Virus record (IMG/VR): IMGVR_UViG_3300033417_000005
Span: 8,617-72,616 of that record
Reading direction: 5' to 3' (one strand)
Source: a virus
Lineage: Duplodnaviria; Caudoviricetes
DNA length: 64,000 nucleotides
Shown here piece by piece: positions 20,259 to 53,976 of this stretch. Made by a program: the position numbers and the translations under genes. Under the pieces are notes generated by a model. That model was not told the DNA's origin and searched no databases. It was given only the letters and a program-made list of their open reading frames with translations. The first letter of the stretch is position 1. The number at the start of each line of letters is the position of its first letter.

Positions 20259-20720
20259 ATGCCCATCATTCACTCAAAGAGATCTGTATACGCAGGGATA
20301 GACCCCGGTATGAGCGGTGGGCTCGTCTGTATCGGCCCTCAACTAATCGTTACCCCCATGCCTCCTACCGAAAGAGATATCTGGGATTGGTTCGAGGCTC
20401 TTCCGCCCGTACGTCTGGCCGTGATAGAAAAGGTGCATTCCATGCCCCGACAAGGAGTGGCGAGTACCTTCAAGTTCGGTTGCAGCTACGGAGGACTGCG
20501 CATGGCTCTGATTGCTTCTAAGATCCCATTTCAAGAAGTAACGCCCCAAACTTGGATCAAGGGACTCGGGATTCCCGGTAAGAAGAAAACTGAATCTGGG
20601 ACTCAGTGGAAAAATCGTCTCAAGGGCAAAGCGCAGCAATTCTTTCCGCAAGTAGGTGTGACGCTAAAAACGGCGGATGCACTTTTAATCGCCCGGTACT
20701 GCCAAAAAATCGGCAAGTAG
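20259..20720 (+). CDS. RuvC-like Holliday junction resolvase
   Basis: GIDPGMSGG, AVIEKVHSMP, FKFGCSYG, ADALLIA. Confidence 0.85.
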   Translation: MPIIHSKRSVYAGIDPGMSGGLVCIGPQLIVTPMPPTERDIWDWFEALPPVRLAVIEKVHSMPRQGVASTFKFGCSYGGLRMALIASKIPFQEVTPQTWIKGLGIPGKKKTESGTQWKNRLKGKAQQFFPQVGVTLKTADALLIARYCQKIGK

Positions 20721-20739: not shown

Positions 20740-20885
20740 GTTTTCCGCTTACGAAAAGGTGAGCGGCGGATTGAAACACGCTTATTTGCGGAAAGAATTG
20801 CTGCGCTTTGACCACACGGGGTCAATGGTTTGGATCGTGCGCCCTCTGCTTTGCCGTGCGATCTGATTTTGCGGCCCCGTGTGGT
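20740..20885 (+). CRISPR. Solitary CRISPR cassette 1: repeat (20740-20777), 36-nt spacer (20778-20813), long hairpin (20811-20885)
   Basis: Repeat GTTTTCCGCTTACGAAAAGGTGAGCGGCGGATTGAAAC with an 8-bp stem and ATTGAAAC end. Spacer matches the minus strand of 20624-20659 at 32/36. Confidence 0.8.
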
Positions 20886-20911
20886 TCTTACTAATCACCA
20901 GGAAAGTCGCG

Positions 20912-23353: not shown

Positions 23354-23947
23354 ATGATGGCAGTGAAGCAGCGTAAGAAGAAAGAGGGACCTTTGAGCAA
23401 GAGAGACCGGATAAGGGAGTATCTGCAAGGCTGTCCTGATCTGAGAAGTATCAACGCGAAGGAAATTGGGCGTATCTTCGGAGCGAATTCTTCCGAGATT
23501 TATAAGGTGCGGAGGGGGATCTATAAGTCTAGGGCGTTCGAGTACACCAATGCAGGTCGCGACGAGATGTTGAAAGAGACGCCCAAAGAGTTGTCTTGTC
23601 GCAAGGAGCCGACGGGTAAGAGAGGAAGAGTACTGGAATACTTGAGAAACCAGCCTGACCTGGCGAACATCAAAGCTAGGGAAATCGCGGTGAACTTCGG
23701 GGTGCATATTACGGAAGTGTATAGAGCAAGGAAGCTGCTTAGGGAGGAACCAGTCAAGCCACTTCTCCTGAGGTTGTCAGCGCAGGAACCTTCGGCAACA
23801 CTCGCGCAGCAATCTCCAGCTTTCAATGGAGCCGGTGACGACGGGGAACTGATTGGCGACCTGGTTGCACTTAACAAGATGGGTGTCGACAGAGTACGGA
23901 GGGCTGTTAAGATCCTGGACCGTTTGAGTATGGAGGATATTCAATGA
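23354..23947 (+). CDS. Protein with two tandem HTH-like repeats
   Basis: KRDRIREYL...NAKEIGRIFG...EIYKVRR and KRGRVLEYL...KAREIAVNFG...EVYRAR. Confidence 0.6.
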   Translation: MMAVKQRKKKEGPLSKRDRIREYLQGCPDLRSINAKEIGRIFGANSSEIYKVRRGIYKSRAFEYTNAGRDEMLKETPKELSCRKEPTGKRGRVLEYLRNQPDLANIKAREIAVNFGVHITEVYRARKLLREEPVKPLLLRLSAQEPSATLAQQSPAFNGAGDDGELIGDLVALNKMGVDRVRRAVKILDRLSMEDIQ

Positions 23948-24237
23948 AAAAATCCAGAAGAAGAACGGAACTGCCTAAGGACTACGAGCAGTATCTAATT
24001 CGGCTTACGGATGAGATCTTCGAACGGGCTTGCGACGAAATGAGCTGGACGTGGAACGAGCTGGCCGACCACGCCAACGTTAGCCGGAGTGCCGTAGCTC
24101 GGCTTGGCAACTACATTACTAAACTTCCTCGGCTTCAGACGTTCTACAAACTGGCAAGTGCGGTTGACATGGACTTGGAACTCGTAACCAAGCAAGTTGT
24201 TAAACTACGGACGGCGGGAAGTTTGAAAGTCGGCTAG
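23944..24237 (+). CDS. XRE/Cro-type HTH protein
   Basis: WTWNELADHANVSRSAVARLG...PRLQTFYKLA. Confidence 0.75.
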   Translation: MKKSRRRTELPKDYEQYLIRLTDEIFERACDEMSWTWNELADHANVSRSAVARLGNYITKLPRLQTFYKLASAVDMDLELVTKQVVKLRTAGSLKVG

Positions 24238-24368
24238 TTTCCGCTCGCCAATCAGCGGGCGGCGGATTGAAACAAACTACAGGCAGTGGGAAAGTTTGAA
24301 AGTCGGTTAAAACGATCCCAGCGCGGGTGGGGCGGCGTTTCCAAGCTCTCTCGCTCGCCCGTGCTGGG
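24237..24368 (+). CRISPR. Solitary CRISPR cassette 2: repeat (24237-24273), 36-nt spacer (24274-24309), hairpin (24317-24368)
   Basis: Repeat GTTTCCGCTCGCCAATCAGCGGGCGGCGGATTGAAAC (37 nt) shares its last 15 nt and its stem with repeat 1. Spacer is about 29/36 identical to 24202-24236. Confidence 0.78.
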
Positions 24369-24452
24369 TTTCACCGGGAGGGACTCGGTTTCCGTACTCT
24401 GCCGAGTTCCTCCTTTATTGACGCGAAGACTGAGAAAAGGAAAATAGGCAGA

Positions 24453-25358
24453 ATGGTGAAGATAACCAAGGACGTGACAATGGACGTTACAAGCAAGCAG
24501 CTTCGCAAAGGGTCCGTGAGCGGAAGGAAAAGGAAGTTACAAAGCTCCACGAAATCACAAAGCGTGATAGACCGTATTGCTCCGATCAACTTTGGTGAAA
24601 ACGATGGAATCAAGCTCAACCTCTATGGACGGAGCGGCACCGGGAAGACCACATTGTGGGCCACCTTTCCTAAACCGATACTGGCGGTGCTGGCTTCCGA
24701 ATCTAAGACGTCGGGGGAACTTCGGAGCATCAATACTTCCGAGTACCGTAAGACGATCAAGCAAGTGGTGCTGGAAGACTGTGACGAAATCGAGGAAATC
24801 TGCGCCCACGTGAAAGAAGCAAACTATGCTACTTTGGTATTGGACCACGCCACCGGATTGCAGCACAAGGTTTTGGCTGAAGTTCTAGGAATTGATAAAG
24901 TGCCGGAACAGCTTACTTGGGGGCTCGCCACTCAGTCGCAATACGGTCAGGTGGGGGTACGCATGAAGACTTATTTGCGCGCTCTGCTAGACGTAGAAAT
25001 CAACGTGGTGATCGTGGCACAGCAAAGAGAATTTCTTACGGAAGGGGATGAGGGGGCAAGTGAGATTTTAGCTCCGTACGTAGCGAGCGCCTTGAGCCCG
25101 AGCACGTGCGCATGGCTCAACTCCTCGTGCGACTACATTGCACAGACCTACATTAGGGAAGAAACGCTGGAAAAGAAGATCAAGATGGGAAAGAAGACAC
25201 GTATTCGCAAGGTGCGCACGGGCAGCGTACAATTCTGTTTACGGGCTGCACCTCACGCCGTGTATACCACCAAATTTCGCAGACCGAAAGGAGGAACGTA
25301 TCCGGATGTTATTGTAGACCCTGATTATGACAAGATCATGCAAGTCGTGAAAGGATAA
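24453..25358 (+). CDS. AAA_24/Sak4-like ATPase (recombination)
   Basis: LYGRSGTGKTT, TLVLDHATG, DYIAQT. Near the exonuclease and SSB-like genes. Confidence 0.8.
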   Translation: MVKITKDVTMDVTSKQLRKGSVSGRKRKLQSSTKSQSVIDRIAPINFGENDGIKLNLYGRSGTGKTTLWATFPKPILAVLASESKTSGELRSINTSEYRKTIKQVVLEDCDEIEEICAHVKEANYATLVLDHATGLQHKVLAEVLGIDKVPEQLTWGLATQSQYGQVGVRMKTYLRALLDVEINVVIVAQQREFLTEGDEGASEILAPYVASALSPSTCAWLNSSCDYIAQTYIREETLEKKIKMGKKTRIRKVRTGSVQFCLRAAPHAVYTTKFRRPKGGTYPDVIVDPDYDKIMQVVKG

Positions 25359-25626: not shown

Positions 25627-25651
25627 CTAATTTTACAAAGGAAACTTGTAC

Positions 25652-26866
25652 ATGGCAAAGACAAGTGCGAAAAAGCTGTTAGGTCCTAAGTTCAAAAAGC
25701 TGTTTGCGAAGAAGCGCGTGGAGGAGATCAGCCTGGAAGACTTCGGAGGCGGTGGGAATCTCCCGGATGGGATTGAAAATGGGGTGGCCAAGCTGGTGTC
25801 CATTAAGATTGGGGCTTATGGAGAGAGCACAACTTTGGCGGGCAAGCCATTCTTCATGCTACGGGGAGTAACCGTTGCCCCTGCCACACATGAGGGACTC
25901 AAGGTGCGGGGTATCCAAGAGAGTTTCGTGCTGGAACCATTGTGCGACACTTCGGGACGTAAACGTGAGACGGAGGAGGAGCATATCGACTACATGCTTG
26001 CCGTGTTGCAGCAGTTCGGGGTGGACACCGGCGAGATTGATGCGGAAGAGCTGGAGGAGGAAGACTTTTTTGCGGAGCTGATTGCCGACGGCGTCTACTT
26101 CCGCTTCCGCACCTGGAAAGGCAGGCCCTCCGATCAGTTTCCCAACCCTCGGGTTAATATTGAATTCTTAGGAGCCTGTGAGTACGAGGAGGGAGAAGAC
26201 GACATAGTCGCGGAAGAAGTGGAGGACGACACCCCCGAGGAAGACGAGGACGAGGAACCGGATTGGGAAAAGAACGACCGAAAAGGCAAGCGAAGTGCTG
26301 GTACGTCCAAGGGTACTCCTACGAAGAAGCCCGTCAAAGGACGTGACAATGCTGCGCAAGCAAAGGGGAAAAAGAAACCGCCTCCTGAAGATGAAGATGA
26401 AGAAGAAGACGAAGAGGCTGACTATTCCGATGTAACCGACCTTGACTTGCTGTCGGAACTCGCTGAAGATCAAGACGACATAGCGGCGAGGGAGAGGCTG
26501 GTCGAGCTGGGCGTGGAAGCGGGGCTGAGTAAGAAGAAACTCGAAGCCCTCGACAGTTGGTACGACGTGGCCGCGGCGATTGATGAAGCGGGTGAAGAAG
26601 ATGAGAATGAGGATGAGGATGGGGACGATGAAGACGAAGATGAAGACGAAGATGAAGATGAAGATGAAGACGAAGATGAAGAAGAGGGCCGTGAATTAGT
26701 GCCGGAGAAGGGCCAAGGGTGGCAATACAAGCCGCCGGGAGCTCGTAAGAAGATCCCCTGCGTTGTCACCGCCGTTGCCGCACGGCGTAAAACTTGTACC
26801 CTCAAGGGAAAGGATGGAAAGATATACAAGGACGTAACGTGGGCTGCCCTCATGAGTGGCAGGTAA
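25652..26866 (+). CDS. Putative ssDNA-binding protein with very acidic linkers and SH3/KOW-like C-terminus
   Basis: Position after the AAA ATPase, beta-rich N-domain, long D/E tracts. Confidence 0.5.
   Translation: MAKTSAKKLLGPKFKKLFAKKRVEEISLEDFGGGGNLPDGIENGVAKLVSIKIGAYGESTTLAGKPFFMLRGVTVAPATHEGLKVRGIQESFVLEPLCDTSGRKRETEEEHIDYMLAVLQQFGVDTGEIDAEELEEEDFFAELIADGVYFRFRTWKGRPSDQFPNPRVNIEFLGACEYEEGEDDIVAEEVEDDTPEEDEDEEPDWEKNDRKGKRSAGTSKGTPTKKPVKGRDNAAQAKGKKKPPPEDEDEEEDEEADYSDVTDLDLLSELAEDQDDIAARERLVELGVEAGLSKKKLEALDSWYDVAAAIDEAGEEDENEDEDGDDEDEDEDEDEDEDEDEDEEEGRELVPEKGQGWQYKPPGARKKIPCVVTAVAARRKTCTLKGKDGKIYKDVTWAALMSGR
26594..26686 (+). repeat. (GAAGAY)n coding repeat encoding poly-(ED)
   Basis: Seen directly in the sequence. 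Confidence 0.85.
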
Positions 26867-52072: not shown

Positions 52073-53675
52073 GAAAACAGGTCGTTTTACTGATGACGGG
52101 AACGGGCATTATGGGATCAAGTTCGACTCGGCAAAGGAACTGCAACAATTCGAGGAGATTGTAGCAAATGCTCTGGTAAGCCGTCAAGAGTTCTTCAAGT
52201 CGTTCACTGATCCGAGAAGGGATATCGACGACGAATGCGGGTATCCTCGTACGGAAACCTTGGAGGTCGAAGACTACCGGGAAATGTACGACAAGGAAAG
52301 CGTGGCTGCGCGAACGGTGAACGTGCTTCCCGAGGAGAGCTGGCAAGTACAGCCCCGAGTGTTTGAAACCGAAGACGTGGATAACATAACTCCATTTGAG
52401 GAAGACTGGGCGGAGCTTCCCAAGTCGCTGCGAGGGAGAAGCTGGTATCAGGATGAAGAAGGAAACCCGGTATGGGAACTGCTCAAACGAGTAGACATCC
52501 TGAGTGGTATCGGTTCTTACGGCATCCTGCTGTTTGGTCTCGACGACCTCGACGTCAATCAGCCTCTGACGACCCCCGTTGCCGGTGTGGAAGAGATGAT
52601 GGTTGATCCTGAAAGCAAAATATCTCCTTCGCGGCATAGGCTTCTGTTTGTAAGAGCATTCGATCAGTCCCTCGTACGAATAAGTCGCTTTAACACCGAT
52701 CGGTCGCACCCTCGGCACGGATTGCCTGAGATTTATGCCGTAACGCTCAACGATCCTAGGAACAACGTACAAGGAGCGATCGGTATCGACACGGCTACCG
52801 TTGACGTGCATTGGACCCGGGTGTTGCACGTCGCCGACAACCTCGGAAGCAGCGAAGTCTTTGGCGTCCCGCGTCAGCAGCAAGTATTCAATCGGCTGTA
52901 CGATTTACGGAAAACCTACGGCGGCAGCGCCGAAATGTATTGGCGAGGAGCATTTCCCGGCCTCTCTATCGAATCCCATCCTCAATTGGGAGCCTCAGTT
53001 TCTCTGAACAAAGATGCGATTCGCAGCCAAATGGAACAATACTTTAATGGACTTCAAAGATATCTGGCGGTGGTGGGGGCAAGCGTCAAGTCCATCGCTC
53101 CTCAAGTTGTGGAGCCGAGTAAGCATATCGACCAATACATCACGGCGATCTGCATCCTTCTCGGGGTTCCCAAGCGTGTGTTCATGGGGACTGAACGTGG
53201 GCAGCTGGCATCCGGCCAAGACGACAAGACCTGGAATGACCGACTGATGAAAAGGCACAAGTCCTATCTTACGCCCAAGCTCACTGTACCTTTCATAGAT
53301 CGTCTTATCGCTTATGGGGTGCTGCGGGAACCGGAGGGATATAGCGTGGTATGGCCCGATCTCAACAATCTCACCGATCAAGAGAAAGCTGAAGTGGCCG
53401 GTAAACGAACCGAGAGCTTGGCCAAGTACGTGGCGGGCGACGTGGAAACCATCATCACTCCCGTCGATTATCTAGTTCGTATCATAGGCTTCAGTCCGGA
53501 AGAAGCTCATGCCATCGTGGAAGCGGCGGAGGAAGCGGCCGAAGAAAAAGCGATTGAAGAGGGACGTGACAATGCTTTGCAAGAAGATGAAGTTCGTGTT
53601 AGAGGCTTCAATCCGGAAGATGAAGAAGGTGATGAAACAGGTGAAGAAGATGAAGATGAAGAAGATGAAGAATAA
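52050..53675 (+). CDS. Portal protein (DUF1073-like)
   Basis: After terL. ARTVNVLPEESW, HWTRVLH, GVPKRVFMG...D..TWN; acidic tail. Confidence 0.88.
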   Translation: MKTQIRDKKTGRFTDDGNGHYGIKFDSAKELQQFEEIVANALVSRQEFFKSFTDPRRDIDDECGYPRTETLEVEDYREMYDKESVAARTVNVLPEESWQVQPRVFETEDVDNITPFEEDWAELPKSLRGRSWYQDEEGNPVWELLKRVDILSGIGSYGILLFGLDDLDVNQPLTTPVAGVEEMMVDPESKISPSRHRLLFVRAFDQSLVRISRFNTDRSHPRHGLPEIYAVTLNDPRNNVQGAIGIDTATVDVHWTRVLHVADNLGSSEVFGVPRQQQVFNRLYDLRKTYGGSAEMYWRGAFPGLSIESHPQLGASVSLNKDAIRSQMEQYFNGLQRYLAVVGASVKSIAPQVVEPSKHIDQYITAICILLGVPKRVFMGTERGQLASGQDDKTWNDRLMKRHKSYLTPKLTVPFIDRLIAYGVLREPEGYSVVWPDLNNLTDQEKAEVAGKRTESLAKYVAGDVETIITPVDYLVRIIGFSPEEAHAIVEAAEEAAEEKAIEEGRDNALQEDEVRVRGFNPEDEEGDETGEEDEDEEDEE

Positions 53676-53976
53676 GAGTCTAAGACTTCGGCAAGCCGCC
53701 GTTTTCGCTTACGTGCAAGGCACCCTCGAAGAATTAAGCGAGGCGCGCATGGTAGTTTTGGAAGGGGTGGAGCTGACCCCTTTTGGAAGAACGCTGTTTG
53801 AAGAGTTGAGGAGATGCGGCTTTAGTCCAACGGACGAAGAGATCAACGCGGCGTTTGCCACAGCTTATGCGGGATTTGCCGACGAGGAACAGTGGCGACT
53901 TGGGGCAAAGCTAGTACGAAACTGTAGAGACAACCCAAAGCTGATCGAGATGTATACGGCCTACAAATACAACTAG
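53665..53976 (+). CDS. Hypothetical protein (start uncertain)
   Basis: Between portal and head morphogenesis genes. Confidence 0.45.
   Translation: MKNKSLRLRQAAVFAYVQGTLEELSEARMVVLEGVELTPFGRTLFEELRRCGFSPTDEEINAAFATAYAGFADEEQWRLGAKLVRNCRDNPKLIEMYTAYKYN

Follow-up and report, generated by a model that had tools for sequence, protein, structure and literature searches.

Cas-less mini-arrays have been described in archaeal viruses, namely in the Saccharolobus portogloboviruses SPV1 and SPV2, where the spacers match closely related viruses and the orthologous site of the carrier shows point mutations or deletions (Medvedeva et al. 2019, PMC6858448). A survey of mini-arrays in phages and prophages (Faure et al. 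2019, as summarised in PMC6858448 and PMC11656645) found spacers that target adjacent genes of related viruses and, according to these summaries, no host-like leaders. Virus-borne spacers often closely resemble the carrier's own sequence, and the cost of such imperfect self-matches has been discussed (Iranzo et al. 2020, PMC7099407). The ability to work as an RNA anti-CRISPR has been shown for solitary viral repeats, including RacrIF1 and RacrIC1 (Camara-Wilpert et al. 2023, PMC10651486). A further related group, the crRNA-like regulatory RNAs (Shmakov et al. 2023, 10.1101/2023.03.03.530964), combines a stand-alone repeat with a downstream spacer that matches in part.

The stretch of DNA analysed here (the window, 64,000 nucleotides) comprises bases 8617-72616 of a 72,616-bp IMG/VR virus record, which is rated as 100% complete by CheckV. 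It carries two units of a common layout, in which the stop codon of a gene is followed by a repeat, a spacer and a strong hairpin. A genome scan revealed them as the only such units in the whole 72.6-kb genome. Judged by their sequence, these units sit between two described classes, sharing the single repeat with solitary repeat units (SRUs) and the spacer-length variant of a neighbouring gene with mini-arrays. We regard them as a further case of the mini-CRISPR or solitary-repeat strategy known from viruses, most likely directed against sister phages or serving as a decoy, and not as a new regulatory system. Unit 2 lies behind the gene of a small helix-turn-helix (HTH) protein and comprises the following features:

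23944 to 24237, plus strand: HTH_3 (XRE-type) gene, 97 aa (PF01381, E = 7.9e-5), with the TAG stop codon at 24235-24237
24202 to 24236, plus strand: P2, the phage's own protospacer-like sequence, covering the final 35 nt of the HTH gene (KLRTAGSLKVG plus TA from the stop codon)
24237 to 24273, plus strand: solitary CRISPR repeat R2, 37 nt (GTTTCC...GGATTGAAAC), its first G being the G of the HTH stop codon TAG
24274 to 24309, plus strand: spacer S2, 36 nt, a copy of P2 in the same orientation, though diverged
24317 to 24368, plus strand: strong hairpin (predicted), rich in GC, with a short TTT behind it
24418 to 24445, plus strand: promoter-like site ahead of a Sak4-like recombination operon that starts at 24453

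Unit 1 has the same design and is found 3.5 kb upstream, behind a ruvC gene:

20259 to 20720, plus strand: gene of a RuvC-like Holliday junction resolvase, directly upstream of unit 1
20624 to 20659, plus strand: own copy P1 in the conserved KAQQFFPQ region of ruvC, matching S1 as the reverse complement (32/36)
20740 to 20777, plus strand: solitary CRISPR repeat R1, 38 nt, 19 nt past the ruvC stop codon
20778 to 20813, plus strand: spacer S1, 36 nt, antisense to ruvC
20810 to 20886, plus strand: hairpin of two tiers, long and very stable, at the end of unit 1 (z = -5 relative to shuffled sequences)

The start of R2 on the last base of the HTH stop codon (24237, the G of TAG) agrees with the original prediction, and the hairpin CCCAGCGCGGG/CCCGTGCTGGG proposed there was recovered by folding. 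According to this predicted fold, the hairpin at 24317-24368 is probably the 3′ end or terminator of unit 2. For the downstream operon starting at 24453, the site at 24418-24445 is the sole promoter-like site found. Further downstream, the interval from the Sak4-like gene to the DNA polymerase gene holds a 406-aa ORF (25646-26866) without a family match; it contains long GAAGAY/GAYGAA runs (Asp/Glu-rich), and a comparable run is seen at 53603-53687.

R2 consists of a 4-nt 5′ tail, an 8-bp stem, a 6-nt loop and an 11-nt 3′ tail (CGGATTGAAAC). In a pattern search R2, like R1, occurred once in the window, compared to zero expected occurrences. The architecture of R1 is the same, and its last 15 nt are identical to those of R2. 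A stem followed by an 11-nt 3′ tail, from which the 5′ handle left by Cas5c derives, is characteristic of type I-C repeats (PMC8524198), and both phage repeats show the stem-loop with an 11-nt tail ending in GGATTGAAAC. With 37-38 nt they are longer than the classic type I-C repeat of 32 nt. By this design we class R1 and R2 as genuine CRISPR repeats of type I-C architecture. An alignment of five repeats, comprising the two phage repeats, two host repeats and one solitary phage copy, showed the stem to be paired in 100% of the cells, with compensatory double changes in four of the eight pairs and an invariant 11-nt tail. This covariation may stem from the source arrays of the repeats rather than from evolution within the phage.

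A scan of host arrays, covering one genome per GTDB species and selecting arrays that end in the shared 15-mer, delivered five genomes. The closest repeat belongs to a Pirellulaceae MAG; it measures 37 nt and is identical to R2 in its first 9 and last 15 nt. The corresponding array (MAG JBIIHW010000002.1, G001:C67:193901-199165) contains 39 repeats with spacers of 33-39 nt (mode 35) and is located directly after cas2, a type I-C-class cas1 (Cas1c), cas4 and a C-terminal Cas7c remnant. No family match for cas3, Cas6 or RAMP proteins was found in this MAG. The locus may be a decayed I-C system which kept the adaptation module and the array, or the MAG may be incomplete. An array in Actinomycetota with the same stem and 11-nt design adjoins Cas8c, Cas7c, Cas4 and Cas1c. 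Related arrays are therefore found beside type I-C cas genes in both taxa, whereas a type I-D array of Chloroflexaceae has only the 3′ end (the last 15-17 nt) in common with the phage repeats.

None of the spacers in the five arrays with the shared repeat ending matches the phage. One spacer of the Pirellulaceae array matched a ruvC-related phage contig (L158:~3510-3545) at about 29/35 positions, with E = 6e-4 in a small custom database. This match is a weak hint that the phage group may infect Pirellulaceae-like hosts. The comparison with Rfam gave nothing at the gathering threshold, the only match being a weak one of the tail to CRISPR-DR9 (E = 4). Scanning IMG/VR with the 15-mer resulted in 71 matches, nearly all of which are attributable to chance. 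A solitary hairpin with the CGGATTGAAAC tail was observed in a different GC-rich phage, IMGVR_UViG_3300036768_000632 (L013:541-576, minus strand), directly after the stop codon of a convergent gene. It is identical to the 3′ part of R2 at 23 of 23 positions, and the 36 nt downstream of it are without a self-match in the 10-kb locus.

The PAM is TTC in type I-C (10.1101/2022.06.15.496202, PMC8406640) and GTN in type I-D (PMC10212523). At the phage's own sites 5′-TTC is absent: on the spacer strand P1 is flanked by GTC, and the 5′ flank of P2 is GTT, as had been reported for this site before. At unit 1, the PAM positions -3 and -2 (GT) are fixed by a nearly invariant Thr codon in ruvC, so that relatives would present GTN too. 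The non-TTC own flanks count against I-C interference but do not decide the matter. Since both own flanks are GTN, the PAM of type I-D, the effector of the true host may be of a type other than I-C.

Both spacers are exactly 36 nt long and begin at the base after the repeat, and their homology to the phage's own genes is confined to that length. S1 agrees with its own ruvC at 32 of 36 positions, compared to 21-23 for typical random 36-mers of the phage genome, and the differences are found at spacer positions 3, 5, 8 and 34. In the ruvC frame S1 reads VKAQQFFPQISV, where the own gene has GKAQQFFPQVGV; an alignment of RuvC proteins showed this segment to be the most conserved motif of its family. 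It is plausible that S1 represents a variant ruvC allele.

S2 had been described as a copy of the HTH gene end with about 29/36 matches and an exact block of 13 nt. The copy was recovered, with revised figures: the alignment with P2 comprises 30 identities, five mismatches and one extra A in the run GGGAAAG, and the exact block measures 15 nt. All mismatches are transitions (spacer positions 8, 10, 12, 14 and 34). The match is contiguous for the first seven nucleotides and mismatches start at position 8, in line with the earlier description. The last 18 nt of S2 agree with P2 at 17 positions, a value that no other site in the 72.6-kb genome comes near, and there is no homology beyond the 36 nt on either side. 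In its present form S2 does not keep the reading frame. Were the extra A removed, it would encode KLQAVGSLKVG followed by TAA, compared to KLRTAGSLKVG and TAG at the end of the own gene, the T/C difference at position 34 being synonymous. S2 is thus a frameshifted copy of a functional variant allele. At the level of nucleotide comparison, each of the two spacers is shown to be a variant allele of the adjacent phage gene, and in both the mismatches to the own gene cluster PAM-proximally (3, 5 and 8 in unit 1; 8, 10, 12 and 14 plus the indel in unit 2).

Both units correspond to SRUs: each has a single full repeat in an intergenic region, cas genes are absent, and no partial repeat lies within 100 bp. 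A mini-array would need at least two repeats around one or two spacers, and no second repeat above chance was found behind R1 or R2. In unit 1, the downstream segment agrees with R1 at 8 of 38 positions in register, which is within chance. In unit 2, a heavily decayed second repeat had been suspected at 24310-24346, together with an exact recurrence of GGGCGGCG 73 bp downstream. The recurrence is real (24257 and 24330). The suspected repeat could not be upheld: it reaches 15/37 in register, as do about 3% of the window positions, and the shuffle p of the local alignment is ~0.09. A partial repeat at 24337-24359 was also considered, where the hairpin contains GTTTCC and, after a gap of 9 nt, CGCTCGCC, which together make up the first 13 nt of R2. 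It was dismissed because of p ~0.09 and because the implied spacer of 63 nt would be wrong. On this basis, both units are treated as repeat-spacer-hairpin and not as repeat-spacer-repeat.

In several respects the units resemble virus-borne mini-arrays: they are cas-less and intergenic, with host-type repeats and with spacers similar to nearby genes, and the carrier's own site is mutated. Like phage mini-arrays they are without a host-like leader, and the regions upstream of the phage repeats showed no similarity to the leader of the host array. In contrast to virus-borne mini-arrays, each unit has a single repeat, and a hairpin stands where the second one would be; the host is bacterial and the repeat is type I-C-like. 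They also differ from the portoglobovirus mini-arrays in that neither a reciprocal partner virus nor a perfect target was found.

An intact seed with distal mismatches was originally taken to permit binding without cleavage, and by this means regulation of the recombination operon at 24453. The crRNA would then bind its imperfect own site and repress transcription into this operon. Such an effect is conceivable with seven matching positions at the start of S2, and partially matching regulatory crRNA-like RNAs do exist in cas loci (10.1101/2023.03.03.530964). Our results fit poorly with this idea. The contiguous match ends after seven nucleotides and is followed by mismatches, and beyond the 1-nt indel the distal 17 nt are no longer in register. 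Instead of TTC the flank reads GTT, and the site belongs to the 3′ end of the HTH gene, with the promoter-like site about 180 nt further downstream. Known crRNA-like regulatory RNAs, which share the stand-alone repeat and the partially matching spacer with the units described here, are encoded in cas loci and have promoter targets beside a PAM; here the elements are carried by a phage, the matching sites are in coding 3′ regions without a consensus PAM, and no PAM-adjacent partial match at a promoter was found. The seed mismatches of unit 1 (3, 5 and 8) further mean that regulation cannot be an explanation common to both units. We therefore regard self-regulation as very improbable. The mismatch pattern appears to fit better with an avoidance of self-targeting than with regulation. 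Targeting of RNA by a type III system was rejected as well, as only S1 is antisense to its own mRNA and S2 is sense.

A function of unit 1 at the RNA level, independent of Cas proteins, was considered in view of the predicted fold of a ruvC read-through transcript. In the minimum-free-energy structure (z = -9.7), P1 and S1 pair over 34 bp, with the repeat hairpin enclosed between them, and three of the four differences are G-U compatible. The inverted copy could pair with the ruvC mRNA in this way and control its processing or stability. However, three out of three transitions are G-U compatible by chance with a probability of about 1/8, the idea does not apply to the direct copy in unit 2, and it leaves the exact length of 36 nt abutting a CRISPR repeat unexplained. 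We consider this the least probable of the explanations discussed here, with hardly any weight. The predicted duplex itself could be a side effect, a hindrance to guide loading or a separate RNA-level function.

Tentatively, and with somewhat less than an even chance, we favour a reading in which both units are phage-borne, cas-less single-repeat guide units that use a type I-C-like host system against alleles of sister phages. Each unit would be transcribed by read-through from the preceding gene and end at its own hairpin. In accordance with the published biochemistry of Cas5c, the host enzyme would cleave where the repeat stem ends on its 3′ side, and the 11-nt handle would stay attached to the 36-nt spacer. 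A second repeat would then be unnecessary, since this cut retains handle and spacer, and one upstream repeat would be enough. The guides would send host Cascade/Cas3 against co-infecting sister phages with the variant allele, and the carrier's own copy would be shielded by the PAM-proximal mismatches or the indel. Recombination would not separate the guide from the resistant allele to which it is tightly linked, and this linkage would explain the adjacency of the two. By analogy, such a role would follow the logic of interviral conflict known from virus-borne mini-CRISPR arrays, a parallel that we draw with the same reserve, as short of even odds.

For the guide reading speak the intact repeats with their covarying stems, the related arrays beside I-C cas genes, the exact spacer length, the PAM-proximal cluster of mismatches, the in-frame S1, the layout common to both units and the published precedent of mini-arrays. 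Against it stand the extra A in S2, the GTN flanks, the lack of a match to the phage among the spacers of the five host arrays and the predicted locking of S1 in the 34-bp ruvC duplex. S2 has one A more than any in-frame allele, so that as a guide it would be damaged or else directed at an unusual allele, and the frameshift weakens the idea of a precise guide for this spacer. The searches for relatives and targets also count against guides. Exact IMG/VR scans with the spacer and protospacer cores gave no match and hence no perfect target of S1 or S2. The RuvC family is large, and 160 loci with a ruvC alignment (39-63% amino acid identity) were examined, with the window as a positive control in which the unit was detected. 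Among these loci there was no copy of the repeat family, no spacer match beyond the conserved ruvC core and no comparable ruvC-adjacent self-match, a signal in L163 being a repeated ribosome-binding/start region.

Searches via the PD-(D/E)XK exonuclease, the HTH protein and the family A DNA polymerase (PolA) did not reveal close relatives, and blastn against isolated phages gave no match. The best PolA match among isolated phages, obtained with tblastn, has 24% identity. By protein look-ups, one homologue of the HTH protein with 80% identity and one sibling variant with 98% identity were detected. The latter is encoded on a 72,024-bp sibling contig in public assemblies, the RuvC protein of which is identical to that of our phage. 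The sibling HTH protein differs at two N-terminal residues and has the same C-terminus. That the sibling contig shares both the RuvC protein and the HTH C-terminus with this phage is a further point against the guide reading.

The failure to find a target in the IMG/VR core scans and in the 160 ruvC-related loci would also be expected if the units were inert scars, meaning functionless remnants of recombination between phage and host array or of ectopic Cas1-Cas2 integration, with mismatches due to drift or to past escape from self-targeting. The geometry of unit 2 is that of a tandem duplication around an insert, and its spacer is frameshifted. This view is hard to reconcile with two independent units in 72.6 kb that have perfect stems and handles and lie at operon ends before strong hairpins, each adjoining its own homologous site. 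Moreover, the direct repeats around R2 should readily delete an unselected insert. We consider inert scars unlikely. Ectopic Cas1-Cas2 integration or target-site duplication, considered separately, would fit unit 2; as a joint explanation it was rejected, because the matching sequence of unit 1 is inverted and 80 nt away.

A stronger competitor, possible although doubtful to us, is that the repeats act as RNA anti-CRISPR (Racr) decoys. Co-transcribed solitary repeats would divert Cas5c/Cas7 of the host into non-productive complexes, and the spacers would be relics of capture. Capture might, for example, involve recombination between a host-array spacer and its protospacer and then excision between repeats, and the relics would later be neutralised by mutation. 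This route yields exactly the order protospacer-repeat-protospacer seen in unit 2. It does not account for unit 1, since simple spacer-protospacer recombination cannot result in an inverted, in-frame, spacer-length ruvC allele at a distance of 80 nt. The presence of one repeat only, with no cas genes, no second repeat and no host-like leader, equals the published definition of SRUs. For RacrIC1, a type I-C example, the distance to the preceding, co-transcribed gene is 11 nt (PMC10651486); the distances here are 0 and 19 nt. The lone repeats in viral intergenic regions, directly behind a gene as in RacrIC1, and their type I-C stem with an 11-nt tail are further likenesses to SRUs and Racrs. Intact repeats beside a frameshifted S2 are what one would predict if the repeat, and not the spacer, were important. 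Small HTH proteins are common next to anti-CRISPR loci, and the gene before unit 2 encodes a protein of this kind. On the other hand, the mismatches are clustered in the seed and not evenly spread, and neither R1 nor R2 is listed in the supplementary text of the SRU catalogue, a text that is possibly incomplete. A Racr needs no meaningful spacer, whereas in both units described here a spacer-length variant of the adjacent gene lies behind the repeat.

Returning to guides against sister phages, an extension of this reading treats the units as selfish haplotypes of a guide plus a resistant allele, that is, as a CRISPR-guided poison-antidote or homing cassette. We hold this extension to be improbable. 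Through the guide, host Cas3 would be turned on the neighbouring allele of co-infecting sister phages and destroy it, and recombinational repair or tight linkage would spread the cassette together with the immune allele. Free-standing homing endonucleases and marker exclusion in T-even phages offer a parallel, in that element and target are neighbours and polymorphisms at the carrier's own site protect it. By analogy, the nuclease in our case would be the host Cas machinery guided by a 36-nt RNA. If true, selfish haplotypes would account for why virus-borne spacers lie close to their targets, a point that Medvedeva et al. (2019) recorded as unexplained.

Why the spacers of mini-arrays and solitary repeats so often resemble directly adjacent genes is still unexplained. 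For this question the phage provides a compact bacterial example, with two independent single-repeat units, one direct and one inverted, at 0-80 nt from their mutated own target. In a type I-C-like setting such as this, one upstream repeat should suffice to load a guide. The findings also link an orphan phage lineage without a cultured relative to hosts with Pirellulaceae-like I-C arrays.
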